NCBI GenBank assembly: GCA_051294375.1
Contig: CM119264.1
Coordinates: 27,045,879-27,109,878 of the forward strand
Origin: Paraspadella gotoi
Lineage: Eukaryota > Animalia > Chaetognatha
Direction of reading: 5' to 3'
DNA length: 64,000 nt
Below the pieces are notes generated by a model. The model did not search any database and was not told where the DNA came from. It worked only from the letters and a program-made list of their open reading frames with translations. Shown here piece by piece: positions 3,103-64,000 of this stretch (position 1 is the first letter of the stretch; each line of letters starts with the position of its first letter). The position numbers and the translations under genes are program-made.

Positions 3103-3140
<38 letters not shown>

Positions 3141-5889: not shown

Positions 5890-7599
5890 AAAGCGCACAC
5901 GCGTTGCGCGTACGAAGCCACGCCAGCGTCTCCGCCTCCGCCGCCGTCGCCGCCGTCACCGCTTAGTTCACGCAGCGGAGACGAGAGGAAAAAAAAAAAG
6001 GGAATCGCCGGAAATCGTCGTCGTCGTCATCGACTCGACGCCGTCTCCAAAAAAAAAAAAAATAGATTTCTAGTTTTCCTCGGGACGAAAAAGGCAGCGT
6101 TTCTCTGCGCGTGACCCCCAGGCACCCAAAGGGGCGAACCCAGAGCCACGCGGGGCACAAAGAGCCGGACGCGGCAACGACGAAAACAGCGACACGGACG
6201 GAGAGAACCAGAAAAACAAAGGGGCGACGATAACGACGCCTCTCTCGGCCGACGCCCGATACTCTCCGAGGCCTTGGTCTCTCCCGCTGGAGAGAAGCTA
6301 AGCCCCCGAATCCAAACCGCAGTCCACGGACGATTTGTCCTTGACTTAAGGATCTTTCGAAGAAAAAAAAAACCTCAGCTCCCGATTCTCCGTTCCCCCC
6401 CTTCTCCCCGTTTCCTACGAGATCAGATAGAGATAGAGAGAGACAGAGTGCGGGAGATCGATTCAAAAGGATTTTTGTTCGGTGTCCATATTTTATTTGA
6501 GAGTGGAACCACCTCTAATCCCTGACACAACGAGGCGCGATCGAAGAGTAGCAAAGTTCGCAGGACGAGTTTGGAAGGAAAAAATTATCATTTTTCGCGA
6601 AAAAGGCGAGAAGCGAGCGCCGCCTATCGAGAGAACGAGCACAACAACGACAACGACCACAACGACGACGAGAATGAGTTAAAGATTATCTGACGCGATT
6701 CCCGTTGGACGAAAAAAAAAAAAAAAAGAACAACTAATCAGGATCGTTGCAAATTCCAGTGTTGGTAGCTGTGTTGCGAGCGAGCGCGATTATCGGCATT
6801 CGCTAGGAGAGCCTCTGCAGGCCGAATCGAGAAACTAAAAAAGAAAATAAAAAACAAAACAACAATCGAGATTTAAAAAAAAAACAACCAAAAAAATAAA
6901 AATAGAAAAACAGTTGTCACGACTTAAAAAAAAATAAACTAACCCAAATCAGCCTATCAGCGAAGACGACCGTACGTTTTGGTAAGAGACAAAACGTCGG
7001 TCAAAAAAAACAAAAACAAAAAAACAGCCCAATCGCTGTCGATTTTAAGAAAAGACGAAAAGACCTATCAAAACATTGAAAACCAAAACACCGCCATGGG
7101 GAAATCAAAGAGCGGCGCGGCGCCCGTAAGTATTTTTTTTAATTTAATGTATGTCCCTTGAGACGAAGAGCGTATTTATATATCAAACTTGTTTATACAT
7201 ATAGATATAAGTATAAGTAAATGATTAAATCAATAGCTATTTCGTAGTAGGCCTTCTTCGTCGGTAGCGTTTCTCCTCATTCTTTCAACCAAGCAGAATT
7301 AGTAATTAATACGAACATCCCGATCTTTTCGCAAAAACCCCTGATTCCATCGACCACGCCCATTCAAAAACTCCCCCTGTTCCTTATTAAATAACCCCCC
7401 CTACCCATTTTCCAAATAAAAAACAAAAGACAATTTTCGATCGAAAATTCCTCGATTTTTCTCGAGATTTCGATTCGACAGAAAATCTGTCGCTCAAATC
7501 TGATTCCCTTTCGGTCGATGGATCGAGTCTCCCTTCTTCGATCCCCAGCGGCCCGCCCACGCCGGCCCCGAAGAGAGATGTAGGTTTTCAAGAGTCACT

Positions 7600-34284: not shown

Positions 34285-34285
<1 letters not shown>

Positions 34286-34848: not shown

Positions 34849-34881
<33 letters not shown>

Positions 34882-36035: not shown

Positions 36036-36566
36036 GGATTTAACCCTTATGGTAAAAAGCAGATGACTTTACTTCATCGCGCAACCGGCAGGCCAGAAAA
36101 AAGGTATGATTAATCACGAGGGTGACCCTTCCGGGACCCTCGATGACCCTTCGCGACCCCGACGGCACGATTCGCCGATGAGGGGCAAAAAACAAAAGTA
36201 AGAAACTTGAAAGAGATTAAATTTCTGATCGTCTTTTGATCGACCCGATGGAGCAGGAGTCGAGTCGAATGGAGAGCGGGAGTCCTCATGGGTTTCGACT
36301 GGCCCAGGGGCAGTGGCACATTTACGACTTCGCCCGAAAATTAAAAGGGAGCGATTCCAAATCCTTATCTCCATCTCGTTGAAGGGAGGAGGAGAGAGAG
36401 AGCAGGGAGAAGGAAGAGAGGAGGGAGGAGAGAGAGAGAGAGGAGAGAAAATGCCTTTGCTTATTCGAACAAACGCAAGGAGAATCGAAGGGCTAACGTT
36501 TGTTACAGTTCCGCAAACTATAAACAAAGAACTACGGACGACGACGACGACGACGACGACGACGAC

Positions 36567-36603
<37 letters not shown>

Positions 36604-36713
36604 ACGACGTTGACTTGTCGAAGACTGGACATCTGTCTTCATCCCAGAAAAAACAGGAGCCAGAAAGGGATCGAGAGATGAATCCCTTGAGAATTGACTC
36701 TCTCTTCTCTCTC

Positions 36714-36776
<63 letters not shown>

Positions 36777-36874
36777 TCTTTCTTTCGTTATCTGAGTTTA
36801 TATGTGGCGTTTATAAACGACCTTTCTCGCTTGGCATATTAATAGTCAAATCTAATCAATAGAAATCGATGCAA

Positions 36875-36913
<39 letters not shown>

Positions 36914-37713
36914 AACAATTATTCCCCTTTTCTCCTTAATGTTTTGTTTTTTTCTTTTTCGCCTTCAAACGAAAATATTTGTTCAGAAGAGAGGGGTTAA
37001 CCTTAATTTGTGCCGGATGTCAGTTCTGTACGAACAGAAATAAAAGTCACTTTGGCGGTCGAAGAGTCAGCTCCTGTCACTGACAGCCTGTCACTGACAG
37101 CCTGTCAGCATTCGACCAGTCAACGCCCTTAAACATGTTCAGTCAACGTGTATTGACTTGCCTAAAAACGTTCTGTATTTACTAGTAGTTTCGGAGTTCG
37201 ATTTGTTAAAGTTTTCATGTACTTTTATCTTAAAGTTATTCTATGATTAAGACTAAAGAAAGTTATAGTAACCGATCTTGATCATATTTTGTTTCAATGT
37301 AGTCCAAATTTTATTATCATAATACCTTAGATTAATACCAAGGATATTTCAATGAATATTAAAACTCCTCTTCCTTTATTTTCATTTCTTATTCCTTTCT
37401 GAGTTCATTCCCCGGTCCCCCCACCCAGCACCCTCCCCCCCCCTCCTCAAAAAAAAATCTCTCTCCATGAAATCTGACAATTTTGACAGAAAAAAAAAAG
37501 AGGTCGCGGAAATGGAACGAGGGATCGATAATGGGGAAGAAGTTGACCTTCGTCAAAAATTTGGGGAGAGGGTGAACGATTTTGATGACGGACGACGACC
37601 GACGATGACGGACGATGACGACAATAACAAAAAAGGTGACGCTGAGGCGAAGACGATACGACACTGATGACAATGACAATGTGGGCTGACATTGAGGACT
37701 TTATGATTCTCTG

Positions 37714-37783
<70 letters not shown>

Positions 37784-39230
37784 TTCTCTCTCTCTCTTTC
37801 TAATATCGTCTTTGCTCCCACTCTTCATCTCTTTATCTCTCTTCCATCCATCGACCCCATTGTTCAAATTTTAGCCAAATAAAGGCTCATCAAAACCGGC
37901 TGCCCTTTTTTTTCCCCTTTTAAAAATTCGGAGCACCCAATTATGAGAACAAAATCCTACTTAAGAAAATTTTTGCTTCTCGAGCGACGCGCCGATGCTC
38001 TCGAAAGAATCTTAAACTTCAAATATAAAATTTGTTTCAGAGAGTTGAACAAAACATTTAGCCAAGCACATCAAATTTCTACTTCGACGTTTCGTTGATG
38101 ATTTCGAGTAGATTATTGTTAAGTTCTCTTTGTTCGAGATAAAGCTTGGTAAGGAGCCCGGCCTTTCGATTCCCGTTGAGTTGATTGTTAGTTGATTGTT
38201 TTTTTTTTTGTCAAGCAGTCTGCTGATAGAGAAAATAAAAAGAAAAATGCTGTAGAAGATTTATCATCTCCGCAAAAAATTTTGATTGAAAGTGACTTGA
38301 AGGTGCACTGAAATATTTGTAATACTTTTTTTTCTCAATATTCTACGCATTAACTCCTAATTGGAAGAAAAAAGAAATTGCGTCTAGACTTAGGGGATTT
38401 GGTTTTGGGGGTCTTAAAATTACTCTTCAAAAATCAGATAAACATTGAGATACAAAGTTTAATCCTTGGTACGTGGAAACGACATTAGGAAAAAGTGTGT
38501 CTTCTCGAAACTGTTTGACCTTTAAAGATTGTTGTAACAGAGGGATAGAGAGAGAGAGGAGAGAGAGAGACGGAGAGAAGAGAGAGAGGAGAGAGAGAGA
38601 GACGAGAGAGAGAGAGAAGAGAGATTTCGTATATTCAGATTCCTAAATTAATGTAGAGGATCGTAATTAATAAGCCCGTAAACTTTTTTATCATAATTTC
38701 TCCGTAGTAATTTGATCCCTCGTTTATTTTGATTAGCTGGACTGAGACCTGAGGAATATTTGCTTTGGATAGGAATTCCCACGGTTTTTTCTCCCCTCAT
38801 CTTCAGATTTTCACTAAACCCTGTCTCAAGCTTTTGGCGTAGAACATACTTAGATCGAGACAAATGTGACCCTGCGATTTTTCGATATTGAACAATTTTA
38901 AAAAAAACAAACTGTTTTCTTTTAAAAATCTGTGAAACCAGTTGCTTGACCCTATTAATTTAGTTTCGAGAAGGTTGTAATAAAAAAAAGTAATACGTCT
39001 AATTATTTAAATCAATTAATTATACATTATTTAACAACCCTCGGTTTTCAAACTTAAACCATTTTTTTTGCCAAAATTAACCCGGGTTCTCCGCGCATTG
39101 AAATGGGAAGCTAATTTTTAAGAGGCTTTTTTTTTTTTTCTTGCCGATAATTGACAATTCTCATTGTTCAAACATCTGAGCATCGCATTCTCACGATTCC
39201 CTTTTGTTTTCCCCTTCTTCGCTTCGTCAG

Positions 39231-41574
39231 GTGTCGCAGGAGATCGTGGGATCAAGTTGATGCTGTTCTCCAGGCAACAGCGCCGGTCCGTCAAAAACCA
39301 TTGATGATTCGCGCGCAATTGCGATACTATCCGCAGGTCGGTCCGGTTCGGTTCGTAATGCCGATTGGTGCTTTGTTGACGTCGTTATCGCTGTTGTCGT
39401 GTGGTGGTTTGCCGCTGGGAATCGTGAGGATCGACTTAGATAATTGTGCGGTAAATGTTTGTTATGGCAATGGACCGCGAAGGCTTTTTATTTTAATTGT
39501 CCGTTTTAATGTCGATGACAATGTTCGTTCGGATTGTTTAATTTATTTTTTTAAACAAATGGATAATAAAATTAGCAAATAAAAACGATTATTTAGAACA
39601 CGAATCCTCGATCTGCCACTAATGGTTTTCCTCCTCCTTTCTCCTCCTCCTTCCTCCTCTTCCCCCCTTCCAACCCCCTCCTCCTCTCCACTCAGGAAAT
39701 CAACCCCGACCGCTGTTATTACATTGCATAACGTCAGCGCTACTGCGTGACTAAAGTGACTGGAATCTCCGCCAGCTTGGACGCTCAACATTTGGCCAAC
39801 GTTGTCGTCCACTCCAACCAAAAGCTCAACTTCACCACAGGTGTGGACGAGGTTGTGGTTGGTGGGTGGAGGCGTGGAATTCAATTAGAAGGGATTCAGT
39901 TTTTATATAGTTATGACTTATTCCGCTGTGGCGTTAGCTATGTAATTCGATTCTGATTTTGAATCCTCAAAGATTTTTATTTCAAATATTTTTTTCCTTT
40001 CTTAAAATTTTGCTTAAGAAAAAAATTTATCTTTGCTTCGAGAAAATTTGAGGTCACGTGACGTCATCGTCGATAAGATATCAAAAAGAAAAATGTTTAT
40101 TATTGACGAAGGGTCCATTATAGCATTTAATAAAGGGTCTTATCAGGAAATAAATTTCTCAGATCTTAGAATCTCTCTCACGTAAACAGACTCCCTGTTG
40201 CCTTTAACCTGGGCGAGAAAAAAAAAGCCAGACCTTCTTCTGTATCTTAGACTGAACCCATTTTATTCCAAACTGAACCTTACCCTTCACTTCACCCTCT
40301 CCTCTTTCATACCCCCAAAAACCCAGCTGGTCTCATCACCAATCCCCCCGAAAATTCAACCGGCGTCGCCTTCTCCCCCGGCGGCGGGCGCCTGCCAGGA
40401 TCTACGGACGGTGGGGCGCGCGCCGTTCCTCCCGGCGCCGTTTTCGAACCGGAAGTGGCGGTCCAGGCGCCGCCGCTTCCGGTTCGTCGACGCCGGCGGA
40501 AAAACGGCGGCTAGCCAACGCGGACGCCGCCGCAGCAGCCGAACGTTTGCCGCGGCGCAAACGCCAGCCATGAAACAGTACCAGAGCTTAAGGTTATTCA
40601 ATTAATCCATCAATCAATTAATCAAATCAATTATTCAATCAATAAATCAAACTACGTATCAAAATATCAAATAACTTCATTCATGATGAATAAACCTATT
40701 AATTAATTAATCAATTAATCAAACTTGCTTATCCAAAATTTTTAAAAAGTTTTTATTCTTGACTAAGAAATCTTATTATTTTCATAGACAAATATATCAT
40801 ATACTGTAGTCATAAAAGCAATATTAATTTCAGCAATCAATTCTGCATAATTTATCAATCATCATATCTCCCTGGAACCAAAAATCATAAATTATCTTCT
40901 TTCTCTCCCGCACAGAGCATCGCCTCCAAGCCAATGGCGAAGCTGACCGAATGTCTACGGCACGCCCAACGAGATTTGTGACCAATTCACGGGCCCGGAT
41001 CAACGCGCCGCCGCCGGCGGCAGCGTGTTCAACGGGGTCGCGGGCATCAGGTGGAAACCGCGTTCTCCCCAACGCCGCCAATCCGTCGCCCGTGTTGACG
41101 CCCGACACGTACAGGGTAAGGGGGCCCACGTGGAGGTCAAGAAGAAAGAATAAGTAATTAATAGCTAATAATAGTAACCCTTGTAATTATTTGCTAGTAG
41201 TTGAAAAAAAGTTTAAAGTATTTGAGTATTTATTTGATTTCTTTTGAGTTGGAATTTTTTTTATTTTCAATTGAAAAATTCGACTTCTTAAAATCTCGAT
41301 GCTAAAAATCGTGCGTCCTCTATTAAGTTTTTTAAAATATTTTTCATTTAATAATACCGTTAACTACGTTAGCCCGCCTATTTTAGGGACCCCAATGATT
41401 AAAAAATTGGCCCCGCCAACGATTAAAATTGTTTTCTCTTTAATTTTTTCTTACTTTTTTTTGTCTCGATCTTTTGACAGTTTATTTTCATTCGAAAGAA
41501 TTCAAAGCTGTTTTTATTAACATTCTTCTTTCTCTCTTCTCTCTCTTTCTCTCTCTCTTCTCTCTCCTCTCTCT

Positions 41575-41620
<46 letters not shown>

Positions 41621-41825
41621 TGCAGGCGCTCGACGTTTACCAGGAAGAGTCGTCGGGCGGCGCCCGCTTCCTGGCCGCCAGCGGCGCTACGGCGGCGGCG
41701 GCGGCGGCGGCGGCCGCCGCTGCATGCCGCCGCCGGCGCCAACGTTACGACATCATAGATTTCCAATCCTCAACGTTCTGGGCAACGCCCGAAAGCCCCA
41801 GCACAGCAGCAACATCGGCCACGCG
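39231..41825 (+). CDS. Second copy of the Z-alpha protein gene (indel-damaged), with an extra exon starting a second Z-alpha domain
   Basis: Near-identical to 61954-63744. Exons ~39231-39336, 39696-39840, 40327-~40586 and 40916-41115, plus 41626-41825 after a (CT)n tract and TGCAG acceptor. The last exon ends ...ILNVLGNARKPQHSSNIGHA, which aligns with VMLVLRHSAGPVKTIEIARN of the first domain. Frameshifts look like long-read indels. Confidence 0.75.
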
Positions 41826-42758: not shown

Positions 42759-42819
<61 letters not shown>

Positions 42820-43020
42820 TCGTCGTCTCGTCTTTAAATTTAAGGACGGCAAATAGGGCCTCCGTTTATTTTAGACTCGTTTCCATTTTGCTGGTTAAGT
42901 TCCGTCTTTGTGTCGGCAGATTTTTTTCTCAGTTTTGATTTTTTTTCTTTTATCAACCGACTTAATATAATTTCCTTATGTGTAAAATAAAAATACTATA
43001 GCCGCATAGCGGCCTAGCCG

Positions 43021-43080
<60 letters not shown>

Positions 43081-43623
43081 CTCTCTCTTTCATTCGACTC
43101 GTCCCAAGAATATAAAACCTTTTTCTTCTTCACTGAAAAATCAATCAGTTTTTTTTTTCTTTCGATTCACAGTCTGGTTTTCACCGTCTCGCTTTTGAGA
43201 TTCACGGATTCAAAGCAAAAATATATTTTTTTTATTTATTTTATTTATTTATTTTTATAAATTTATTAAATTTACTAAATATATGAAATCTTTTTAACAG
43301 TATAAATTAAATAGTAATAATAAAACTTCTTTCTTCAGTTTCTTGAATAAACAAGGCGTCTTGGATGCGTTACAAAATAAATGATTAACGGACCTCCGAC
43401 GGGCGAGAGAGAACTTCTCACCATATGGTCTGGTTTATATGTGTATGAATTATTTCTTTCTTTCTTTCTTTCNNNNNNNNNNNNNNNNNNNNNNNNNTCT
43501 TCAGTTTCTTGAATAAACAAGGCGTCTTGGATGCGTTACAAAATAAATGATTAACGGACCTCCGACGGGCGAGAGAGAACTTCTCACCATATGGTCTGGT
43601 TTATATGTGTATGAATTATTTCT

Positions 43624-43670
<47 letters not shown>

Positions 43671-47280: not shown

Positions 47281-47471
47281 AAATGGGTAAGGTTAGGGAC
47301 GATTCTTTCCTCGGATGTTAATTCTAATGGAGAAGCGTTTTTTTAAAAAAAAAACCGAAATGAAAACAATTTAATTGCTAAAAAGCTTTTATCGATAAAA
47401 ATCGGGTTAACGATAACGACGGTAGGCGATCGACGGTTGACGGTCTGCGGCACGAGACGACGCGACGACGA

Positions 47472-47543
<72 letters not shown>

Positions 47544-48094
47544 ATACGACAGCCTCAACGATGCTGGCGTCAGAGACAGCGATCCGATAAGCTGAATAAA
47601 AAAACGATCGGTCGGCGGAATTCTTTTCTTATTATTATTATTTCGCATTGAATTTCGATCGTCAAAACGAAACAAATTCTTGTTGCCTTTTCTTTTCCGC
47701 TTTTCGTCTTCCATGTTATAAATTTCTGACTTTCCAATCTTCTGATCGCATCAGCTTCGTCTGGACTTCTTCGTCTCAAACAAGTTAACAAGCGATTTCA
47801 ATTAATTTCTCTGAATCGGCAATTGCTTGCACAGTCGCGAGATAAGCGCGATGATCTGGTACACAGCCCTAATTTTTTATTTTCTTTTTGACCAATTTAC
47901 ATTTTGCGTTTTCTGTTTCACCAAGCAACCGCGGCTTGAATCCATCCGGCCACACAGAATTGAGAAAAGGCTGAGCAGCGGCCTTTCCTGAGATGTCGAA
48001 AGCTCAAATACCAAATAGTCTCACAAAGGAGATTTTTTTTTTCTTGAGAGAAAAATTACTCATCATTTGTTGCGAAAATGAGAGTAGAAATTGC

Positions 48095-48144
<50 letters not shown>

Positions 48145-48894
48145 GAGCGAGAGAGGAGAGAGCAGCGAGTCGGCAAATAGTGGAGGGAAAAATGAAAATT
48201 TGTCCGAGCAAATAAACTCCCGGTTTTCTTGACGAGAGAAAAATCTTAAAAGGAAAACTACAGGGTCACACAAAAGTCTCCGGTTCAATAGATGATCCTG
48301 TTATTTCATTTGAAACCTCGTCCGCCACTCCTACATAACGACCTTGTAGATGTGTCCTCAGAAACGGCTCTCTCGCTACAATAGAATCCATTTCAGAAAA
48401 CTTGGGGCAGGCCCGATGCACGAAAAGGCAGGGACCGACCGTCCGGGGGCTGGAAACTTAAACGTAAAGAAATTTCGGATGTTTTTTTCAAGCGACGGGT
48501 GGCGGTTTTCTGATGGCGAGATGATTAGAACGAGAATTGATGTTAATCATTCTTTCTTCACCTTAAATATAATAAGGGGAACAGAAAAGTTATTACTCGT
48601 AATATGCGTTTCATAGTTGCCGAGAAAATAAATAATTCCTTCTACCGAGTAGAGGTGAAATTTTTTCACTTATTTCTTTAGTTAATATAATATATCTAAT
48701 ATAATTTCTTTGCGTTAAATGAGAATGATTAGAGTTGTCAAAGAATTGTCTCAGTATTGAGAATGATGTCAAGGAATTCGATCGAGTTCTTCAGTCTAAC
48801 AAAATTTAGACGCGAGTTTTTTTTTTGTGTGGAACTTGAGATGAATCTTTAAAAAAATCAAAGTCAAAGAGGAAAAACTATTTTAGAAATAAAA

Positions 48895-49254
48895 TGGTCC
48901 ATCTCTCGAAACCCACTTAACTGTCGTAGTATGACAACATCCCGGTTGCGCCGGATGCCCATTGGCGATGGGGCATCTCACTGTTGGGCTTTGGGGGCGT
49001 CCGACCCTCAGTGACGCCTCAGTCACTGGCGCCGGTTACCCTAGGACAGTTTCGCTTTGCCAACGCAGATGGAAGTCGTTAGGACTGTGGATGGAACACA
49101 ACGCCTGGGATGTGTGTTCATGTGAAAATTGTATGGCTGAACGATGGTGGACGTGAGGCGGAGTGAATATACGCCACAGTAGCATCTTTTCATCCCTTGA
49201 ACAGCCACGGAACGGTTCGAGGACTGGAACGGGCTTATAGGCAGGGATGGGTCA
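48895..49254 (+). ncRNA. Copy of the structured RNA candidate
   Basis: Near-identical to 58437-58799; ACTGGAACGGGCTTA at 49223-49237. Confidence 0.42.
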
Positions 49255-51370
49255 GGATTTAACCCTTATGGTAAAAAGCAGATGACTTTATACTCATCGC
49301 GCAACCGGGTCAGGCCAGAAAAAAGGATGATTAATCACGCGGGGTGACCCTTCCGGACCCTCGATGACCCTTCGCGACCCGACGGCACGTCGCCGATGAG
49401 GGGCAAAAACAAAAGAAGAAACTTGAAAGAGATTAAATTTCTGATCGTCTTTTGATCGACCCGAATGGAGAGGAGTCGAGTCGAATGGAGAGGGAGTCCT
49501 TGGGTTCGACGCCCAGGGGAGGACATTACGACTTCGCCCGAAAATAAAGGGAAGGATTCAAATCCTTATCTCATCTCGTGAGAGAGAGAAGAGGGAGATG
49601 AGAGAGAGAGAGAGGAGAAGAGAGAGAGAGAGAGAGAGAGAGAAAATGCCTTTGCTTATTCGAACAAACGCAAGGAGAATCGAAGGCGCTAACGTTTGTT
49701 TACAGTTCCGCAAACTGATAAACAAAGAACGATGACGACGACGACGACGCGACGACGACGACACGACGAATACGCACAGCCTCAACGATGCTGGCCGTCA
49801 GAGACAGCGATCTCATAAGCTGAATAAAAACACGATCGGTCGGCGGAATTCTTTTTTTATATATTATTTCCGCTTGAATTTCGATCGTCAAAACGAAACA
49901 AATTCTTGTTGCCTTTTTCTTTTCCGCTTTTCGTTCTTCCATGCTTATAAATTTCTGACTTTCCAATCATCTGATCACATCAAGCATTCGAGTCTGGACC
50001 TTCTTCGTCTCAAAACAAGTTAAACAGCGCATTTCAACGTTAATTTCTCTGAATCGGCAAATTGCTTAGGCAACAGTCGCGAGATAAGTACGCGCATGAC
50101 AGTCTCGTAGAAAAAACTATGCAGTTAAAAAAAAAATTTCAGTATATGATTTTTTCATTTTTTGACCAATTTACATTTGCGTTTTCTGTTTCACCAAGCC
50201 AACCGCGCTTGAAATCCATCCGGCCACACAGAATTGCAAGAAAAGGCTGAGAGCAGCGGCCTTTCCTGAGATGTTCGAAAGCTCAAATACCAAAATACGT
50301 CTCACAAAGGAGATTTTTTTTTTCTTGACGAGAAAATTACTTCATCATTTGTCCGAAAATGAGAGTAGAAATTGGCATGAGAGAGAGAGAGAGAGAGAGA
50401 GAGAGATATGCGGCTCGGCTCAGTACCTGTCTGCGAATCTTTCCGACCCAAAATTCTAAGTCCCCGTACTCTTCCAAGCGTTACCTTTCAGACCTAGGCC
50501 TTCTCTACCATCTGCTACTAGTTCGACACCCGGCCAGTCCGTTGCAAACACGATCCAAGACTATTGCGCACGAATTATAGAACAGAACGATCGACTCAGA
50601 ACAACACTTTGTTTTGTTCTTTCTCTCTCTCTCCCCTCTCTTTGGATTGTTTTTTAACCCCTCGATCAACACACTATCCGCACCACACAGGAGCTGAAGA
50701 TAGTTTCTCCATTTCTCATTTAACTTAAATTCTTAGGAGAAAAGTGTTTAAAAAATTTTAATATATTATATAATTTTTATTTTTTTGATAAAGACACCAA
50801 AAAGCATGTATTATCATAGCCATCTTATACTAATGCTTTTGTATAGTTTTATTTTTCTTTTTTTATCTTATAAACTAAAGTAAAGTAAGATCCTCAGAAT
50901 TTAAAATAAAATAATTTGTTAGGAATAACAGTTTTTAATGTGGCAACGCACAGTTTTATTGACAAGTCAAGTCGGACATGTTCGATCTTATACGACGTTA
51001 GCAGTCTTCATCAGCAAGATGTAAGAAGCTTGATGAAGCTTGATGAAGACTCTAACTCTATAAGCAGTCGAAATACATGTACTGATACTACTTGTCAATA
51101 AAATTCGTTAGCCACATTAAAACTGTTTATTCCTAAAATGCCTTAAAAAATACAACGAAATCGAAAGTCAACATCATAATAAAATTTTATACGTTAGGAT
51201 GCAGTGACAACATAAATTTAGATGTCCAATTCATTTAGTAGAAATAGCTTTGACTGCGACTTCAATGAGTTTTTCCTTAACATGATGTAACGAAATGATT
51301 TTTACGTCGACTCTGCTTTTTCAGCCAGATCCCACTATAATTCATCCTATTAATTCGGTTACGTCAATTT

Positions 51371-52351: not shown

Positions 52352-54922
52352 TTAATTTTAAAAAAAAAGAAAAATAATTTCGAAAATACATAATTTAAAA
52401 ACATTTGATTATTTGATATCAGAAACACGCTTTATTTTGGGCTGGTCCCTTCTTCATTAAAAAACGGTGTGCCATAATGGTCTTCAACTTCGTCAAAGCT
52501 ATTGTGAAGGATCACCAATGGCCGCTGGGATGAACGGTTGGTGGATTTTAGCTCCACCCATAACACTTTTATTTATATTCTATCTGATACTTCGGCAAAG
52601 AGCAATAAATACTGGCCCAAGAAGAGCTAAATTTTAGTAACTTTGGTTAACTTTAGTAAGCGGTTATTGTTATTCAAATCGTTTATTATCTGGTTCAAGC
52701 CAATTTTGCATAAATAAGTATGAACGAAAATTTATTTATGCCACTTAATTTCAGTGAGACAATAGGAGAATAGTCGGGTCACTCTGATGAACATATAAAG
52801 GCCAAAATTTTTATTCTATTAAAATGATCATTCATGAGAAAAATTCATGATATTTATTAAAATTTTTTACTTATTAATAAAAAACATTAGTTTTATAAAA
52901 TAACTCAGGATCATTTATTTCTTTTGCAAAAAACAAAAGAATAAATTTGAGAGCCAGCTACCAATTAATTTCCTTATAGTAGACAATTCAACAAGCCTAA
53001 TTATCCATTGTAGTTTTATTAAAAGTTCATTTAGACAAGATGTGAGTCACTGACCGTAAGAACTAATATTATTCTTATTAAATTTCTTCCTTTCTTTCCT
53101 GTGGGGGAAACCCACGCCCCCAAAAAAAAAATTTTAACAAAGGGCCTTTTGATCATTGATAAGTATATTTCATCTCAGTAAGAATAATCCATGATATATG
53201 TTCTGTTTCTTGTTGCCGTAATTTTCTTTGGGGATAAACGATGTTTTCATCCTGCGTATAATGATTACATCAAATGAAAACTCAATTTCTTACTTCTCTC
53301 CAATAACACTGCATTTAAAACTGCTACATGAAAACCTTCAATACAAAAATGATTCTCTTTAACCTCCAAACTCCATTAACAATTTCTTGGTTGAGAAAAA
53401 ATGTGGTTAGTAAAGATTGTTAAGTCTCCCGAGTGACTGAAAGATACCAATAAGTTTACTTTCATTTCAATAACTTGCATTTCCCGTCCTGCACTTTCAT
53501 TTTTTCTTTCTTTCTTTCTTTCTTTCTCTCTCTCTATCTTTCCAAATCGAAAATGAGAATTATTTCAATTTCTTCTTCTTTTTTTTTCTCCTCTCGTCGA
53601 GAGAAGAACGATTGACGGACAAATTTCTTTTTTTATTTTTTCTTTTTATTTTCATATCACATTTTTTCCCCCTTTTTTCTTTTTTTTAACTTTTCAACTT
53701 CCCCCCCCCCGTTCCCATTTTTTTTAGTCTCTCCAATTCTCTATCCACGAAAAAAAAGCTTTTTTCATTTTCGAATTTTTGACATCGTCCTTAAAAATCG
53801 ATTTTGATTTCGAAGAACTCCGCTGACGGTTTCTGTTTTTTCTCTCATTTATTTTTCTTTTTCTTTTTACTTTTTTTTTCTTTTAATTTTTCGCTCCGTT
53901 TTTCACTTTTCTTCTCGCGTCTTAACGGATTTTTATTGTTTCTTGGCCCATCTCCCGGTAACTGGTCCCCACCCGTCCCCGATCACCTGATCCCCTGTCC
54001 TCTAGTCCCCGGTCCTCCTGGTCCCCTGTCCCGAAACGCGCGTCGTTTGATGATGGATATCTTTTTTTTCGCACGACCCAATTCTGAATCCGGAGGCGAG
54101 AGTTCGGCTGCGGGGAAGAACTCGAAAAAAAAATGTTGGTTGGTTGTAACGTAATTTTCTTCAATTTTTAATTTTATTTTTTATTTTTTATTTTTTTGCC
54201 TTTTTTAATTTTCTTTTCTTTTCTTTTCTTTTCTTTTCTTTTCTTTTCTTTTCTTTTCTTTTCTTTTCTTTTCTTTTCTTTTCTTTTCTTTTTACTCGTT
54301 GTCCCTGTCTATTATATAACCTTTCCTTTATTAAATTCAAACTCCTTTCTCTCACCTAATTGAATTTTACATATTCTTTTTTTTTTTTAAATTTTTGTCC
54401 AAACCTTTTGTCTCGGTTTAAACATTAAAAAAAAAAAACTAAAATAAGTCGATTTGATAAGTCGTGTAAATTTTTTCAAAAATTTTTTTCTTCGTTGCTC
54501 GCCGCTCTCTTATATATATATATCTTAAAAATTATAAGTTTTATAGAAAAGTTTTAAATGAATTCAACAACGATTCATTTGAAAATCTCAACCACAACGA
54601 AACGAAAGGATTATAATATCAAATTATAAGTTATAATTTTTATTAACCAGATTTTTTCCAAATCTCATTTGCATATTACAGTCCGTCGTGAATCACGCAT
54701 AATAAAGTAGAAGGTATCGATTGGAATCGAATAAAAACGAAATAGCATGTAAGGGAAGAAAAAAATACTGTGTTTCAAGTATTCATGTGTTTTTAGCTTC
54801 TTTTTTTTTATTTCTTTTTTTTTTTTTTGGCTTTTGTGCACGATATACATCGATACGGCAAAAATTGGGAGCAACCTTCGCGTGACGCTAACATTGTTTA
54901 CGTTTTTCGCAATGTTTTTACA

Positions 54923-54962
<40 letters not shown>

Positions 54963-55673
54963 TCTAAACCCAGCCACTCGTACCCGCACGGTCGAGCGGC
55001 AATTCCCGACATTTCGGCCTCTCGTTAGTCTAGTGACCGTTTTGTCTTTCTTTTTCGTTTTCGTTTCGCTTTCAATTTTTTGTTTCGTTTTTTTTTTCAC
55101 TCTCACGATTTTTTTATCTTAATTTTTGGCGCCTCAAAACTCACCACTCGATCACCAGCGACATCTCTGGTTTTGGATGAGTACTAAATCGAACACGAAA
55201 AAAACAAAAGACGCGAATTTTTTATAAATAAATCGATGTAATTGCACCGTCGGGCACATCAGGGCACCGAGGCGCACCGTCGGGCACGAGACACGATCGG
55301 ACTGTCGTCGAACAACGCGGCATTTCACCTCACGCACCACTCCGCGACCACTCCGCGTTCACGCTAGACTCGTCTAACACAGCGACACGATTCTCGTCAC
55401 ACCAGCGACACCTTTGGTCACGGCTTTGACATCGTCATCCGCCAGGCGGCGACGGAGACTTTGGCGCCGGTCGCGATGGCGGCGCCACCGAAAGAGCGCC
55501 GCCTCCGATGGGTCGTCCTTCGTCTAACGTCGTCGTCGGTTACGCAGCAGCGCAACGACGCCGCTTCAATCGCATAAAGGCAGCAATCACGCCATCATCT
55601 GGCCACCGCCACATGATTATCACGTCAACACGCGACTGGGCACAATCCACTCCCAACCCTCGAGCCTTCAACG

Positions 55674-56828
55674 ATGGACATGGTGTCCCTGACTCGAGGA
55701 AGACCCAAAGTGGCACCCACCCCTTTAACTTACCCTCCAGGGGTCCAGTTCATCGAGGTTCTCTCCCCCTCGGGGCCGTTATTGCCCCAGACGGGTCCAC
55801 TGCCCCAGGCCGCTCTCAAGGCGAACAGATTCCCACAGCTGGGAATCCCCGTCGTCGCTTTTAATTTTCCCTACAATGCGACAGAGGGGGCGGTGATCAC
55901 TACCCCTACCCTGGGCGAAACATCGCCCCGAGATCGAGGGCCGATTTCCCCTCCCCTAGGGTTAGCCACGTCGCCCCTTCCGGGTCGAAATTGCCCGCAC
56001 CCTTTGCGGGCCGGATTGACTCTAAGCCCAGAGAGTGCCTTACCCGGCCAACCCTCTTCAACCACGCCCACAGCCTTACCCTCGTTTTGGCCCCGACGAG
56101 AAGTGAGGTTTCCCTCCGCATCTCATTGCTCAGTTTACATGAGCGCCGCCATCTCGTCGGTGGTCCCCAACGCAACCATGTGCACCTCCGCCACCCACGT
56201 GCCTCAATATCCCAATGCGCATTTCCCAGCAGGTGTCCACCTGACCTCGCCTGACCCTTTCGTCCCTCATCCATCTCCATACATGAGCGCACAGGGGCCA
56301 TCTCTTTCCTCTAGCGCCATCTCAGCATCTTCCTCCGCCGGCGTTACCAATTCTCACGCCGCTCCGACGGCGCTCCCTTTACGTTCCGCTAATCCGAGTC
56401 TTTCTTCCCTTTCCGCCACGCCTCCTTTTTGCGTTACGCCCTCTTCTCTCTCCGCCGCGCCTTCTCTCGATTCCATCCTCGAACATTCCCCGACGATCCT
56501 CTCCGACGACGCGTCGCCTTCCATGGACTTCGCGCCCACTTCCCTCGCGACTTCCGGTTCCCTCGTCTCCTCGACGACGCCGTCGCTGACATCTTTTCCT
56601 CAAACGGCGCCGCCATCGGCTCAGCTCTACTTCGGAGGATTTGAAATCGATGACGCGGGAAAGGACAAGAAGAAGCGGAAGTCGCCCTCGACGCGGAAGA
56701 GAGACGAGGAGAGAATGGCCAAGTTTCTAGAGTTGAAATCGAAATGCGCAGAAGTAAGTTACCCTTTTTTAAAAAAAAAATGGCCGCTGCGGAAGTCGGG
56801 TAAGGGACGGGTGAGTCGAGGCGAGTAG
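55674..56828 (+). CDS. Ser/Pro/Thr-rich, probably disordered protein with a basic C-terminal motif (KKKRKSPSTRKRDEERMAKF); function unknown
   Basis: 384-codon stop-free frame in non-microsatellite, GC-rich sequence. The antisense mirror frame is interrupted by stops. A possible GTAAGT donor follows ...KCAE at ~56754. The true start is uncertain because the GC-rich block begins at ~55240. Confidence 0.5.
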   Translation: MDMVSLTRGRPKVAPTPLTYPPGVQFIEVLSPSGPLLPQTGPLPQAALKANRFPQLGIPVVAFNFPYNATEGAVITTPTLGETSPRDRGPISPPLGLATSPLPGRNCPHPLRAGLTLSPESALPGQPSSTTPTALPSFWPRREVRFPSASHCSVYMSAAISSVVPNATMCTSATHVPQYPNAHFPAGVHLTSPDPFVPHPSPYMSAQGPSLSSSAISASSSAGVTNSHAAPTALPLRSANPSLSSLSATPPFCVTPSSLSAAPSLDSILEHSPTILSDDASPSMDFAPTSLATSGSLVSSTTPSLTSFPQTAPPSAQLYFGGFEIDDAGKDKKKRKSPSTRKRDEERMAKFLELKSKCAEVSYPFLKKKWPLRKSGKGRVSRGE

Positions 56829-56994
56829 AAATGGGTAAGGTTAGGGACGATTCTTTCCTCGGATGTTAATTTCTAATGGAGAAGCGTTTTTTAAAAAAAA
56901 AACCGAAATGAAAACAATTTAATGCTAAAAAGCTTTTATCGATAAAAATCGGTTAACGATAACGACGGTAGGCGACGACGGTTGACGGTTGACG

Positions 56995-57059
<65 letters not shown>

Positions 57060-57612
57060 ATACGACAGCCTCAACGATGCTGGCGTCAGAGACAGCGATC
57101 GATAAGCTGAATAAAAAAACGATCGGTCGGCGGAATTCTTTTTTTTATTATTATTATTTCGCATTGAATTTCGATCGTCAAAACGAAACAAATTCTTGTT
57201 GCCTTTTTCTTTTCCGCTTTTCGTCTTCCATGTTATAAATTTCTGACTTTCCAATCTTTCTGATCGCATCAGCTTCGTCTGGACTTCTTCGTCTCAAACA
57301 AGTTAACAAGCGATTTCAAGTTAATTTCTCTGAATCGGCAATTGCTTGGCACAGTCGCGAGATAAGCCGAGATTGGTACCAAGCCCGCTAATTTTTTTAT
57401 TTCTTTTTTGACCAATTTACATTTTGCGTTTTCTGTTTCACCAAGCAACCGGCTTGAATCCATCCGGCCACACAGAATTGAGAAAAGGCTGAGCAGCGGC
57501 CTTTCCTGAGATGTCGAAAGCTCAAATACCAAATAGTCTCACAAAGGAGATTTTTTTTTTCTTGACGAGAAAAATTACTCATCATTTGTGCGAAAATGAG
57601 AGTAGAAATTGC

Positions 57613-57663
<51 letters not shown>

Positions 57664-58436
57664 CGAGAGAGAGAGCGAGAGAGAGAGAGAGCGAGTCGGC
57701 AAATAGTGGAGGGAAAAATGAAAATTTGTCCGAGCAAATAACTCCCGGTTTTCTTGACGAGAGAAAAATCTTAAAAGGAAAACTACAGGGTCACACAAAA
57801 GTCTCCGGTTCAATAGATGATCCTGTATTTCATTTGAAACCTCGTCCGCCACTCCTACATAACGACCTTGTAGATGTTCCTCAGAAACGGCTCTCTCGCT
57901 ACAATAGAATCCATTTCAGAAACTTGGGGGCAGGGCCCGATGCACGAAAGGCAGGGACCGACCGTCCGGGGGGCTGGAAACTTAAACGTAAAGAAATTTC
58001 GGATGTTTTTTCAAGCGACGGGTGGCGGTTTTCTGATGGCGAGATGATAGAACGAGAATTGATGTTAAGTCATTCTTTCTTCACCTTAAATATTAATAAG
58101 GGAAACAGAAAAGTTATTACTCGTAATATGCGTTTCAATAGTTGCCGAGAAAATAAATAATTCCTTCTACCGAGTAGAGGTTGAAATTTTTTTCACTATA
58201 TTTCTTTAGTTAATATAATATAATCTAATATAATTTCTTTGCGTTTAAAATGAAATGATGTTAGAGTGTTCAAAAGAATGTCGTCGAGTTATTCGATGGA
58301 ATGATGTCAAGGAATTTCGATCGAGTTCTTTCAGTCTAACAAAATTTTAGACGCGAGTTTTTTTTTTGTGTGGAACTTGAGATGAATCTTTAAAAAAATC
58401 AAAGTCAAAGAGGAAAAACTATTTTAGGAAATAAAA

Positions 58437-58799
58437 TGGTCCATCTCTCGAAACCCATCTTAACTGTCGTAGTATGACAACATCCGGGTTGCCCGGATGC
58501 CCATTGGGATGGGGCATCTCACTGTTGGCTTTGGGGGCGTCCGACCCTCAGTGACGCCTCCAGTCACTGGCGCGGTTACCCTAGGACAGTTTCGCTTTGC
58601 CAACGCAGATGGAAGTCGTTAGGACTGTGGATGGAACACAACGCCTGGGATGGTGTGTTCCATGTGAAAATGGTATTGGCTGAACGATGGTGGACGTGAG
58701 GCGGAGTGAATATACCGCCACAGTAGCATCTTTCATCCCCTTGAACAGCCACGGAACGGGTTCGAGGACTGGAACCGGGCTTAAGGCAGGGATGGGTCA
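58437..58799 (+). ncRNA. Structured RNA candidate (~360 nt) with an RNase P/RNase MRP-like 3' architecture
   Basis: Terminal helix 58437-58448/58788-58799 (12 bp; alternative 5' strand 58453-58468). Internal helix ACTGTGG 58624-58630/CCACAGT 58718-58724. Hairpins ATGGAACACA/TGTGTTCCAT (58631-58663) and CCTTGAAC/GTTCGAGG (58739-58767), the latter directly followed by ACTGGAAC(C)GGGCTTA (CR-V-like). G-U pairs favour the + strand. No convincing ORF. The CR-I/P4 match is imperfect. Confidence 0.45.
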
Positions 58800-59212
58800 G
58801 GATTTAACCCTTATGGTAAAAAGCAGATGACTTTACTCATCGCGCAACCGGGTCAGGCCAGAAAAAAGGATGATTAATCACGGGGTGACCCTTCCGGACC
58901 CTCGATGACCCTTCGCGACCCCGACGGCACGATCCGCCGATGAGGGGCAAAAACAAAAGAAGAAACTTGAAAGAGATTAAATTTCTGATCGTCTTTTGAT
59001 CGACCCGAATGGAGAGGGAGTCGAGTCGAATGGAGAGGGAGTCCTTGGGTTCGACGGCCCAGGGGAGTGACATTACGACTTCGCCCGAAAATAAAAGGGA
59101 AGGATTCAATTCCTTATCTCATCTCGTTGAGAGAGAGAGAGAGAAGATATCTGAGAATGGTAGAGATGATGAGAGGGGATAGAGATGAAGAGATTATGGA
59201 GAGAGGAGAGAG

Positions 59213-59253
<41 letters not shown>

Positions 59254-59379
59254 AGAAGAGGAGAGAGAGAGAGAAGAGAGGAGAGAGAAAATGTGCCTTT
59301 GCTTATTCGAACAAACGCAAGGGAGATCGAAGGCGCTAACGTTTTGTTTACAGTTCGCAACCTGATAAACAAAGAACGA

Positions 59380-59420
<41 letters not shown>

Positions 59421-59511
59421 TTGACTTGTCGAAGACTGACAATCTGTCTTCATCCCAGGAAAAAAACAGGAGGCAGAAAGGTCGAGAGATGAATCCCTTG
59501 AGATTGACTCT

Positions 59512-59555
<44 letters not shown>

Positions 59556-59651
59556 TTCTTTCGTTATCGAGTTTATATGTGCGTTTTATAACCGACCTTT
59601 CTCGCTGGAGATTTAATAGTCAAATCGTAATCAATGAGAAATCGATTCAAA

Positions 59652-59720
<69 letters not shown>

Positions 59721-59851
59721 AATATTCCCCTTTCTCCTTATGTTTGTTTTTCTTTTTCGCCTTCAACGAAACTATTTGTCAGGGTTAACCTTAATTGCCG
59801 GATGTCAGTTCTGTACGAACAGAAATAAAAGTCACTTTGGTCCGAAGAGTT

Positions 59852-59903
59852 CAGCCTGTCACTGACAGCCTGTCACTGACAGCCTGTCACTGACAGCCTG
59901 TCA
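59852..59903. promoter_or_regulatory. Tandem 14-bp near-palindromic TGACAG array upstream of the Z-alpha gene
   Basis: (CAGCCTGTCACTGA)x3 + CAGCCTGTCA, giving alternating CTGTCA/TGACAG hexamers (TALE-homeodomain MEIS/TGIF/PKNOX core). One unit fewer at 37074-37107. Confidence 0.4.
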
Positions 59904-60280
59904 GCATTCGACCAGTCAACGCCCTTAAACATGTCAGTCAACGTTGTATTGACTGCCAAAAAACGTTCTGTATTTTACTAGTAGTTTCGGAGTCATTTGT
60001 TAAAGTTTTCATGTACTATGATTAAGACTAAAGAAAGTTATAGTAACCGATCTTGATCATATTTTGTTCAATGTAGTCCAAATTTTATTATCATAATACC
60101 TTAGATTAATACCAAGATATTTCAATTGATATTAAACTCCTCTTCCTTTATTTCATTTCTTTATTCCTTTCTGAGTTTCATTCCCCGGTCTCCACCCAGT
60201 CACCCTCCCCCCCCCTCCTCAAAAAAAAAATCTCTCTCCATGAAATCTGACAATTTTGACAGAAAAAAAGGTCGCGGAAA

Positions 60281-60338
60281 ATGGAACGAGGGATCGATAA
60301 GGGAAGAAGTTGACCTCGTCAAAAATTTGGGGGAAGAG
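60281..60338 (+). CDS. Putative upstream (first coding) exon of the Z-alpha gene
   Basis: The consensus of this copy and 37512-37571 reads MERGIDNGEEVDLVKNLGEE followed by GTGAAC. That phase-0 donor is compatible with exon 61954. Each copy alone is frameshifted, so the call depends on the consensus. Confidence 0.35.
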
Positions 60339-60462
60339 GTGAACGATGATGACGACGACGACGACGACGATGACGACGATGACGACATAACAAAAGTGAC
60401 CGCTGAAGACGAAGACGACGACACTGATGACAATGACAATGTGGCTGACATTGAGGACTTTA

Positions 60463-60533
<71 letters not shown>

Positions 60534-61243
60534 TCTTTTTCATATATCGTCTTTCTCCCACTCTTCATCTCTTATCTCTCTCCATCCATCGACCCCATTG
60601 TCAAATTTTAGCCAAATAAAGGCTCACAAACCCGGCTGCCCTTTTTTTTCCCCTTTTAAAAATTCGGAGCACCCAATTATGAGAACAAAATCCTACTTAA
60701 GAAAATTTTTCTTCTCGAGCGACGCGCCGATGCTCGAAAGAATCTTAACTCAAATATAAATTTGTCAGAGAGTTGAACAAACAACATTTAAATTCTACTC
60801 GACGTTCGTTTGATGATTTCGAGTAGATTATTGTTAAGTTCTCTTTGTTCGAGATAAAAGCTTGGTAAGGAGCCCGGCCTTTCGATTCCCGTTGATTGAT
60901 TGTAGTTTGTTTGTTTTTTTTTGTCAAGCAGTCTCTGATAGAGAAAATAAAAGAATGCTGTAGAAGATTTTATCATCTCCGCAAAAGAATTTGATTGAAA
61001 GTGACTTGAAAGTGCACTTGAAATAATTGTAATACTTTTTTTTTCTCAATATTTTCTACGATTAACGCTAATTGGAAGAAAAAAGAAATTGCGTCTAGAC
61101 TTAGGGATTGGTTGGGGGTCTTAAAATTACTCTCAAAAATCCAGAATAAACATTGAGATACAAGTTAATCCTTGGTACGTGGAAACGACATAGGAAAAAA
61201 GTGTTAGTTCTTCGAAACTGTTTGACCTTTAAAGATGTTGTAA

Positions 61244-61376
<133 letters not shown>

Positions 61377-61953
61377 CGTATATCAGATTTCCTAAATAAT
61401 GTAGAGGATCGAATTAATAAGCGTAACTTTTTTATCATAATTTCTCCGAGTAATTTGATCCCTCGTTTATTTGATTAGCTGGATGAGATGGAGGAATACT
61501 TTGCTTTGGATGAATCCCAGGTTTTTCCCCCTCATCTTCAGATTTTCACTAACCGTCTCAAGCTTTTGGCGTGACATACTTAGATCGAGAACAAATCGTG
61601 ACCCCCTCGCGATTTTTCGATATTGAACAATTTTAAAAAAACAACTGTTTTTCTTTTAAAAATCTGTTGAAACCAGTTGCTTGACCCTATTAATTAGTTC
61701 GAGAAGGTTGTAATAAAAAAAGTTATTACGTCAATTTATAAAAATCATAATTATACATTATTACAACCCTCGGATTTTCAAACTTAAACCATTTTTTTGG
61801 CCAAAATTAACCCGGGTCTCCGCGCATTGAAATGGGAAGCTAATTTAAGAGGCTTTTTTTTTTCTTGCCGATACAATTGACAATTCTCATTGTCAAACAT
61901 CTGAGCATCGATTCTCACGATTCCCTTTTGTTTTTCCCCTCTTCGCTCGTCAG

Positions 61954-63744
61954 GTGTCGCAGGAGATCGTGGATCAAGTGATGCTGGTTCTCAGGCACAG
62001 CGCCGGTCCCGTCAAAACCATTGAGATCGCGCGCAATTGCGGATTCTCATCCAAGCAGGTCGGTCGGTCGGTCGTAATTGCGATTGGTGCTTTGTTGACG
62101 TCGTTATCGCTGTTGTCGTTGTTGTGGTTTGCCCGCGGGGAATCGGTGGTCGGTGTAAATGTGCGGTGTTTGTTATGCAATGGACCGCCGAGCTTTTTAT
62201 TTTAATGTCGTTTTAATGTCGATGACAATGTTCGTTCGGTGTTTAAATATTTTTTTAAACAAAAAGATAATAAAATTAGCAAATAAAAACGATATTAGAA
62301 CCACGAATCCGATGCCATAATCTTTTCCTCCTCCTCCTCCTCCTCCTCCTCCTCCTCTTCCCCCCTTCCACCCCCTCCTCCTCCTCCACTCAGGAAATCA
62401 ACCCGACGCTGTATTACATGCAACGTCAGCGACTGGTGACTAAAGTGACTGAATCTCCGCCAGCTTGGACGCTCAACATGGCCAACGTTGTCGTCCACTC
62501 CAACCAAAAGCTCAACCTCACCACAGGTGTGGACGAGGTGGTTGGTGGGCGGATGGGTGGATCAATTAGAAGGGATTCAGTTTTGATATAGTAGGACTAT
62601 TCCTGGTGGCGTTAGCTATGTAATTCGATCTGATTTTGAATCCTAAAGATTTTTATTCAAATATTTTTCCTTCTTAAATTTTGCTAAGAAAAAAGAATTA
62701 TCCTTGCTTCGAGAAAAGTTTTGAGGTCACGTGACGTCATCGTCGATAGAATATAAAAAGAAAAATGTTTATTATTGACGAAGGGTCCAGTTATAGCATT
62801 TATAAAGGGTCTTCATCAGGAAATAAATTTCTCAGATCTTAGAATCTCTCTCACGTAACAGGACTTCCCTGTGCCTTTAACCTGGGCGAAAAAAAAAGCC
62901 AGACCTCTTCTGTATCCCTTAGACTGAACCCATTTTATTCCAACTGAACCTTACCCTTCACTCACCCTCTCCTCTTCTCCCCCCCAAAACCCAGCTGGTC
63001 TCATCACCATCCCCCCGAAATTCAACCCGGCGTCGCCTTCTCCCCCGGCGGTGCCAGGATCTACGGACGGTGGGGGCGGCGCCGCTTCTCCCGGCGCCGT
63101 CGAACCGGAAGTGGCGGTCAGCGCCGCCGCTTCCGGTTCGTCGACGCCGGCGGAAAACGGCGCCAACGCGACGCCGCCGCAGCAGCCGAACGTTGCCGCG
63201 GCGCAAACGCAGCCTGAACAGTACCAGAGGTAAGGTTATCAATTAATCCATCAATCAATTAATCAATCAATTATTCAATCAATAAATCAAACTACGTATC
63301 AAAATATCAAATAACTTCATTCATGATGAATAAACCTATTAATTAATTAATCAATTAATCAACTGCTTATCCAAATTTTAAAAAGTTTTATTCTTGAACT
63401 AAGAAATCTATATTTTCATAGACAAATATTCATATACTGTAGTCCATAAAAGCAATAAATAATTTCAGCAATCAATCTGCATAATTTTATCAATCAATCA
63501 TATCTTGAACCAAAAATCATAAATTATCTTCTTTCTCTCCCGCACAGAGCATCGCCTCCAGCCAATGGCGAAGCTGACCGAATGTCTACGGGCACGCCCA
63601 ACGAGATTGTGACCAATCACGGGCCCGGATCAACGCCGCCGCCGCCGGCGCAGCCGGTCAACGGGGTCGCGGGCATCAGGATGGAAACGGATTCTTCCAA
63701 CGCCGCCAATCCCGTCGCCCCGGTTGACGCCGGACACGTACAGG
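61954..63744 (+). CDS. Z-alpha (Z-DNA/Z-RNA-binding winged-helix) domain protein, ADAR1/ZBP1/PKZ-type N-terminal region; partial, 4 exons, runs off the window end
   Basis: Manual splicing gives exons 61954-62058, 62394-62526, 62995-63229 and 63548-63744. All are AG/GT bounded and phase-compatible (0,1,2), giving one open frame. Exons 1+2 read VSQEIVDQVMLVLRHSAGPVKTIEIARNCGFSSKQ|EINPTLYYMQRQRLVTKVTESPPAWTL, which has the Z-alpha signature K-x-E-I-N-x-x-L-Y ... P-P-x-W and the same Tyr-to-Pro spacing (15) as human ADAR1 Y177-P192. Exons 3-4 are an Ala/Pro/Gly-rich linker. Confidence 0.9.
62726..62739. promoter_or_regulatory. Overlapping CLEAR/USF E-box (GTCACGTGAC) and CRE (TGACGTCA) in an intron of the Z-alpha gene
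   Basis: GTCACGTGACGTCA lies in an otherwise AT-rich intron and is identical at 40053-40066. Confidence 0.4.
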
Positions 63745-64000
63745 GTAAGGGGGGCCACTGGAGGTCAAGAAGAAGAATAAGTAATAATAGCTAATAATAG
63801 TAATTGTAATATTTGCTAGTAGTTGAAAAAAGTTTAATAGTATTTGAGTATTTATTTTGATTTCTTTGAGTTGAATTTTTTATTTTCAATTGAAAAATTC
63901 GACTTCTTAAAATCTCGATGTAAAATCGTGCGTCCTCTATTAAGTTTTAAAATATTTTCATTTAATAATACCGTTAACTACGTTAGCGCCTATTTTAGAC

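Follow-up and report, generated by a model that had tools for sequence, protein, structure and literature searches.

Does the right-hand end of this locus encode an intact Z-alpha domain, and if so, which protein carries it? A first-pass annotation of the window (the whole 64,000-nt stretch of DNA analysed here) had proposed that two short exons join across an intron into such a domain. It considered the product a functional binder of Z-form nucleic acid in an invertebrate-like genome. We examined the splice, the family of the domain, its contact residues, the exons around it and its relatives.

Two exons splice into one Z-alpha domain

The two exons and the intron between them are as follows.

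61954..62058, forward strand: Z-alpha exon 1, with helix 1, strand 1, helix 2 and the K169/K170 equivalents; 35 codons, phase 0/0 (sequence, contig and profile).
62059..62393, forward strand: GT-AG intron inside the Z-alpha domain, 335 nt, a length that is not a multiple of 3; skipped by the contig.
62394..62526, forward strand: Z-alpha exon 2, with the recognition helix NPTLY, the wing SPPAW and about 17 residues more; phase 0/1 (PF02295, contig and identical ENA peptides).

Acceptor CAGs precede 61954 and 62394, and donor GTs lie at 62059 and 62527. The 335-nt intron is in phase 0, the exon chain contains no stop, and the reading frame is open over five exons. A public run matched part of the window (share 0.19). 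Public contig record 1 (1544 nt, depth 40.9) covers 61954-62057, 62393-62523, 62992-63227 and 63546-63745, and its own positions run on across the joints (104/105, 235/236 and 471/472). It skips three canonical GT-AG introns, with 2 differing letters and zero gaps over 671 nt; the one-base offset at the first joint is a G common to both sides. The automatic joint listing for this record kept the second joint only, the two others having been dropped at repeats. Because record 1 lacks three canonical introns, it is either a spliced transcript or a copy of one. The transcript evidence consists of assembled contigs from one run, not of junction reads, and the status of that run as RNA is a guess. 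The splicing of 61954-62058 to 62394-62526 into one Z-alpha domain was thus confirmed. The coordinates of the GT-AG phase-0 join in the first-pass annotation proved exact, the chain is free of stops, and one public contig spans the joint, so that the transcript check proposed for the 62058/62394 junction came out positive at the level of assembled contigs from one run.

Two details of that annotation needed correction. The intron does split the domain, but it lies two residues inside the K169-Y177 stretch and not just before the recognition helix. The statement that the ORF track misses the domain holds for the exon-1 half; the domain is only half hidden, because the ORF holding exon 2 already scores 23.1 bits, above the Pfam cut-off.

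Record 1 differs from the exons at two positions only, 61999 and 63110, both A>G and each followed by G. The change at 61999 replaces Ser with Gly within the Z-alpha domain, and that at 63110 is silent. These differences may be alleles or A-to-I self-editing; A-to-I self-editing is reported for squid ADAR1 in the accessible part of PMC10278661.

A Pfam search using exon 2 alone revealed PF02295 at 23.4 bits (curated cut-off 21), and exon 1 alone gave no z-alpha match. We therefore scored the joined peptide on a profile of our own, made from 62 motif-defined domains that came from 31 of the 35 relatives retrieved by exon 2; the Pfam score is for exon 2 alone. On the relatives' profile the joined peptide reached 81.1 bits with no internal gap, and exon 2 alone 49.3 bits, a value that is circular. 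When exon 1 was shuffled within the joined peptide, the mean fell to 49.9 and the maximum to 61.1 bits, none of 500 shuffles reaching 81.1. Exon 1 alone scored 21.8 bits against a shuffle maximum of 6.6 (0/500), and this score is independent because exon 1 was absent from the query that found the relatives. By sequence profile, the N-terminal helices that complete the winged helix are present. Exon 2 had six PDB matches, of which five were Z-alpha proteins (PKZ, poxvirus E3/34L and the giant-virus class), each match being weak (E 0.47-0.79); exon 1 gave one chance match only (E 1.9). The exon peptides, folded as two separate chains and not as the spliced product, gave a score of 0.17, which speaks neither for nor against the fold, and the ESM Atlas queried with exon 2 returned only leads below 0.9. 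The profile scores support the spliced product being a complete canonical Z-alpha domain. The proposed intact domain stands: exon 2 passes Pfam, exon 1 fits the missing half of the relatives' profile, and the transcript contig joins both.

The bulk of the window is made up of near-copies (86-95% identity) and is interrupted by four 25-N gaps. The same regions recur in three to four copies rich in errors (6491-31027, 34112-49769 and 53494-64000), and the assembly seems to be mis-joined through a TC repeat near 41845. One copy contains the Z-alpha exons a second time.

36383..41386, forward strand: redundant copy of 59222-63998 (86% identity), rich in errors, in which the Z-alpha exons lie at about 39230-39840.

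Against 61450-63990, this copy shows 175 gaps (138 of one base) and 48 substitutions. A pseudogene paralogue was considered for the 39-kb copy and rejected, since single-base indels make up most of its differences and it is the 62-kb copy that the contig matches. The copy at 36383-41386 is likely an assembly artefact of the same locus, not a paralogue, and we infer from the single-base indel pattern that noisy long reads were left uncollapsed. The scaffold is no reliable basis for gene models or copy numbers. A redundant window rich in errors, and transcript support from one run of contigs whose RNA status is guessed, might suggest that the Z-alpha join was read by chance or belongs to a dead pseudogene. 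That reading is barely credible, because the contig skips three canonical introns exactly and without a gap, the frame stays open through five exons, exon 1 matches the relatives' profile far above its shuffles, and the exon 2 peptide is unchanged in two other contigs.

Contact residues and predicted binding

Compared with the human Z-alpha sequence from the PDB, the domain keeps K169, N173, Y177, P192, P193 and W195 at the offsets of human ADAR1 without a gap, and E171, I172 and L176 are also the same at identical offsets. The earlier claim of six contacts with human spacing is borne out by this gap-free alignment of helix 3 and the wing. The motifs NxxxY (helix 3) and pPxW (wing) and the NLYW tetrad are all present at the human offsets; the former two are given as defining Z-alpha motifs in the accessible text of PMC11298590, and the tetrad as a Z-alpha signature in that of PMC11293857. 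The substitutions are K170Q, R174P, G183R and T191S. The first-pass list contained K170->Q, R174->P and T191->S, all three of which were seen, but omitted G183->R.

A residue census was taken over 60 profile-found domains of the 19 full ADAR1 relatives. Pro is the commonest residue at position 174 (41/60), although this share is inflated because the census proteins were chosen by likeness to exon 2. Ser is the commonest at position 191 (20/60). Gln at position 170 is rare (3/60), and Arg occupies position 183 in 3/60, where Gly is found in 48/60. Two of the three substitutions flagged in the first-pass annotation, Pro174 and Ser191, are thus the commonest residues in the relatives. In the part of PMC6278649 that was accessible, N173A, K169A and Y177A cause strong loss of binding and K170A a milder one; R174A and T191A alter the B-Z transition only slightly. 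From its residues, the domain is likely a functional Z-nucleic-acid binder, and Gln at the K170 position probably lowers its affinity somewhat. According to the accessible text of PMC11298590, prediction alone falls short of showing Z-binding, and only binding assays settle function.

The gene could be as described here and its Z-alpha domain could still bind the Z-form weakly, or only when pre-formed, if Gln170, Pro174 and Arg183 together alter helix 3; this is compatible with any carrier protein, ADAR1 or not. A proline within a helix removes one backbone hydrogen bond, and the net charge of the domain is only +2, both of which count towards weak binding. So does the reduced affinity of K170A (PMC6278649, accessible part), as does the behaviour of two CD-validated giant-virus Z-alpha domains, neither of which has Pro after Asn and which convert DNA but not unmodified RNA, as far as the accessible text of PMC11298590 goes. 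The literature searched, mostly without subscription papers, yielded no biochemical assay of a Z-alpha domain that is of the N-P type or from an invertebrate, and nothing relevant on NPTLY or R174P. However, N, Y, P, P, W and K169 are all kept here, whereas only 34 of the 60 related domains keep the full N-Y-P-P-W set. The presence of Pro174 in 41/60 domains over several phyla, a share inflated by selection, also argues for its compatibility with function. We therefore regard such weakened binding as unlikely.

Exons on either side of the domain

Further exons were placed upstream and downstream of the domain.

7096..7125, forward strand: putative alternative 5' exon B, coding end; ATG and 10 codons (starting MGKSKS), phase-0 GT donor.
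55116..56753 (start approximate), forward strand: alternative 5' exon A, at least 1.6 kb, phase-0 donor at 56754 (contigs).
62995..63229, forward strand: linker exon 1, Pro/Ala/Gly-rich (contig joint with GT..AG ends, phase check).
63548..63744, forward strand: linker exon 2, Pro/Ala/Gly-rich, after which the gene leaves the window (contig, phase check).
41626..41825, forward strand: candidate next exon, present only in the noisy duplicate copy (contig loose end; frame provisional).

The join of exon A to the Z-alpha domain is seen in one 159-nt contig (depth 10.7), which consists of about 130 nt of the exon A end and 30 nt of the Z-alpha exon. Exon A is a Ser/Pro-rich open frame that ends in a Lys/Arg-rich, NLS-like stretch, and its frame is unreliable upstream of the last 43 or so codons, where 18 columns were outvoted among four copies. 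Its copy at 45578-47208 is covered by further contigs. No upstream splice was seen in the exon A contigs, and exon A may be a first or an internal exon. A Pfam search with exon A gave no match, and a search with its tail found no relatives.

The ATG of exon B stands in a strong Kozak-type context and is taken as the start because in-frame stops lie upstream; a noisy second copy lies near 20600. The loose end before 61954 is mixed (2 contigs, agreement 0.62), and the ends of exons B and A together reproduce 30/30 of its positions, with an expected agreement of 0.617. Position 7096-7125 is the only place on either strand at 30/30, the next best reaching 26. Exon B would thus join Z-alpha exon 1. 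Its MGKSKS start resembles an N-myristoylation signal (MGxxxS); the sea urchin ADAR1 P0004 likewise begins with MG. Two isoforms would follow, a short one with the MGKSKS start and a long one with the basic NLS-like stretch, both keeping Z-alpha. Nothing relevant on alternative first exons of invertebrate ADAR1 was found in the literature, searched mostly without subscription papers.

Downstream, the loose end of record 1 after 63745 matches the start of the 41626 exon, bar one extra base. This exon is flanked by repeats and was passed over in the contig placement. Its last 36 residues scored 7.8 bits on the Z-alpha profile, a score that none of 1000 shuffles reached; the stretch was chosen after a BLAST hint, and E is 0.65 window-wide. 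The end of the exon bears a weak resemblance to the first half of a second Z-alpha domain. As a search query the exon found no relatives, and the three linker exons had no match in Pfam. The 41626 exon also seemed to match a supposed ADAR1 linker motif, DF..WAT; this was rejected, as the motif occurs in 0/35 relatives.

A neighbouring gene may lie at 500-6000, as suggested by GC-rich islands that resemble exons (about 530-820, 2640-2930, 3940-4140 and 5570-5950); they had no match in Pfam or the Atlas. The 17 neighbouring ORFs gave no usable Pfam family, and the ESM Atlas queried with a neighbouring ORF returned nothing. Minisatellites were seen at 1348-1722 and 33024-33302, their periods being about 30 and 18 bases.

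Relatives, carrier protein and known systems

A search using exon 2 revealed 37 proteins at E<=0.001, two of them identical exon fragments and 35 non-identical. PF02295 was found in 34 of the 35. Nineteen are full ADAR1 proteins (Z-alpha + dsrm + A_deamin), three break off where the dsRNA-binding motif begins, 12 show Z-alpha domains only and one has no family; 13 of the 35 thus show no ADAR part. Five of the ten clusters looked up were named, all as ADAR: amphioxus (Branchiostoma XP_078666178.1), sea urchin (Lytechinus XP_041467105.1), crinoid (Antedon XP_071955833.1), centipede (Strigamia T1J5P4) and mussel (Mytilus VDI65576.1). Of a second ten, three were named: one protein from a liverwort, one from krill and one listed as hypothetical. 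P0023 and P0025 are two-Z-alpha proteins without a deaminase, the species being the liverwort Calypogeia fissa and the krill Meganyctiphanes norvegica. According to the accessible part of PMC11293857, land plants lack a canonical Z-alpha, and PMC3167634 reports the loss of ADAR1 in crustaceans. A scan of JGI metagenomes gave 358 pattern matches and zero relatives. In a viral scan two loci matched a short stretch only, one of them translating without a Z-alpha helix, and both were taken as chance.

Two short ENA contigs (P0001 and P0002) carry the exon 2 peptide with 44/44 identical amino acids, the same boundary residues and different intron flanks; identity despite differing flanks points to purifying selection in the relatives. 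The roughly 17 residues past the domain Trp (62475-62526) are likewise identical in both, which points to a constrained motif outside Z-alpha.

The best matches of the joined domain were the first Z-alpha domains of P0006 (46.4 bits) and P0004 (44.1 bits). In a domain tree of 63 rows and few columns, the highest domain identity was 44%, no well-supported group held the query, and the ADAR label was unclustered (16 changes, shuffled mean 17.8). In the 19 full ADAR1 proteins the first Z-alpha begins at residues 1-16 and is followed by 1-5 more (2-6 in total), with linkers of 12-189 aa. Here Z-alpha begins near residue 12 in the exon-B isoform, and the weak second half-domain follows about 200 aa on. 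A tblastn search with the 35 relatives found no dsRNA-binding or deaminase sequence in the window, and the gene runs past the window end; membership in ADAR1 is therefore inferred and judged probable.

The gene is probably an ADAR1 of the invertebrate type: its N-terminal Z-alpha would dock on duplexes in the Z-form and bring the deaminase there. In this proposal, a multi-exon gene encodes the domain at the N-terminus of its product; helix 3, with its Asn and Tyr, and the Pro-Pro-x-Trp wing would contact left-handed Z-RNA or Z-DNA, presumably as in human ADAR1, and the downstream deaminase would be steered to such duplexes. A second Z-alpha would follow downstream, and a dsRNA-binding motif and a deaminase domain would lie beyond the window. 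The splice, the family match, the six kept contacts, the low-complexity linker and the exon A join are the parts with direct support.

Alternatively, the Z-alpha could be genuine but sit in a protein other than ADAR, one built from tandem Z-alpha domains and disordered linkers that would serve as a sensor or scaffold like ZBP1 or PKZ. The 13 of 35 matches without an ADAR part, the named ones of which come from liverwort and krill, count both against ADAR1 and for this alternative, and the accessible text of PMC11298590 describes predicted Z-alpha proteins without ADAR in anthozoans and algae. However, several of the 13 are short and may be ADAR1 fragments, as three others proved to be. Squid ADAR1 has a single large exon, which the exon structure here does not resemble, and P0006, P0016 and P0031 appear to be single long ORFs, unlike this split gene. 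The linker of about 200 aa is just above the range of the 19 full relatives, two contigs with differing intron flanks carry the same 44 aa of exon 2, some of them past the domain, and the C-terminus lies beyond the window. The tree result, the rarity of Gln170 and Arg183 and the lack of Pro after Asn in the two CD-validated giant-virus domains also count against ADAR1. Against the alternative stands the agreement with ADAR1 in nearest domains, N-terminal position and spacing. A non-ADAR carrier is unlikely, although it is the main alternative. A more specific proposal, and a rather improbable one, is an invertebrate counterpart of ZBP1 whose alternative first exons would target membranes (the myristoylation-like MGKSKS) or the nucleus (the NLS-like tail of exon A). 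If the C-terminus were to turn out not to be a deaminase, the gene would be a candidate ZBP1-like sensor outside vertebrates.

The first-pass annotation implied that a Z-alpha domain in an invertebrate was a surprise, which is not supported: such domains are known in invertebrate ADAR1, and the closest relatives are such proteins. The accessible parts of the respective papers describe an invertebrate ADAR1 with Z-alpha in squid (PMC10278661), ADAR-like proteins with Z-alpha in oyster (PMC6651903) and multi-Z-alpha ADARs, e.g., in Lingula (PMC11293857). The domain is one more of a class known from invertebrates. An intron inside Z-alpha, or two 5' exons both keeping it, was not found in the ADAR1 literature searched.

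Compared with human ADAR1 Z-alpha (PDB 1qbj, 2acj/2gxb; PF02295), nine residues are the same at identical offsets and the four substitutions named above differ. In human, Z-alpha occurs only in the p150 isoform according to the accessible part of PMC11293857, whereas both putative isoforms here would have it. PKZ, poxvirus E3/34L and giant-virus Z-alpha domains form the class of the five weak PDB matches of exon 2; their binding has been shown, whereas here it is predicted, in a spliced gene with no kinase or viral context seen. The locus shares with invertebrate ADAR1 arrays the extreme N-terminal Z-alpha, the N-P-x-L-Y helix, the S-P-P-x-W wing, low-complexity linkers and probably more than one Z-alpha. 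It differs in that an intron lies within the domain, the linker is encoded in exons of about 200 nt, and Z-alpha would be kept with either of the two alternative 5' exons; Gln170 and Arg183 also set it apart, as does the lack of a dsRBD or deaminase within the window. In squid ADAR1, one exon carries Z-alpha through the dsRBM (accessible part of PMC10278661), whereas here Z-alpha is split by an intron. The residue census is of wider use, as Pro at the R174 position dominates invertebrate-type Z-alpha domains (41/60, the share inflated by selection). The likeliest reading is one more invertebrate ADAR1 with an unusual gene structure, in which an intron runs through a Z-alpha helix and two 5' exons would both keep Z-alpha.
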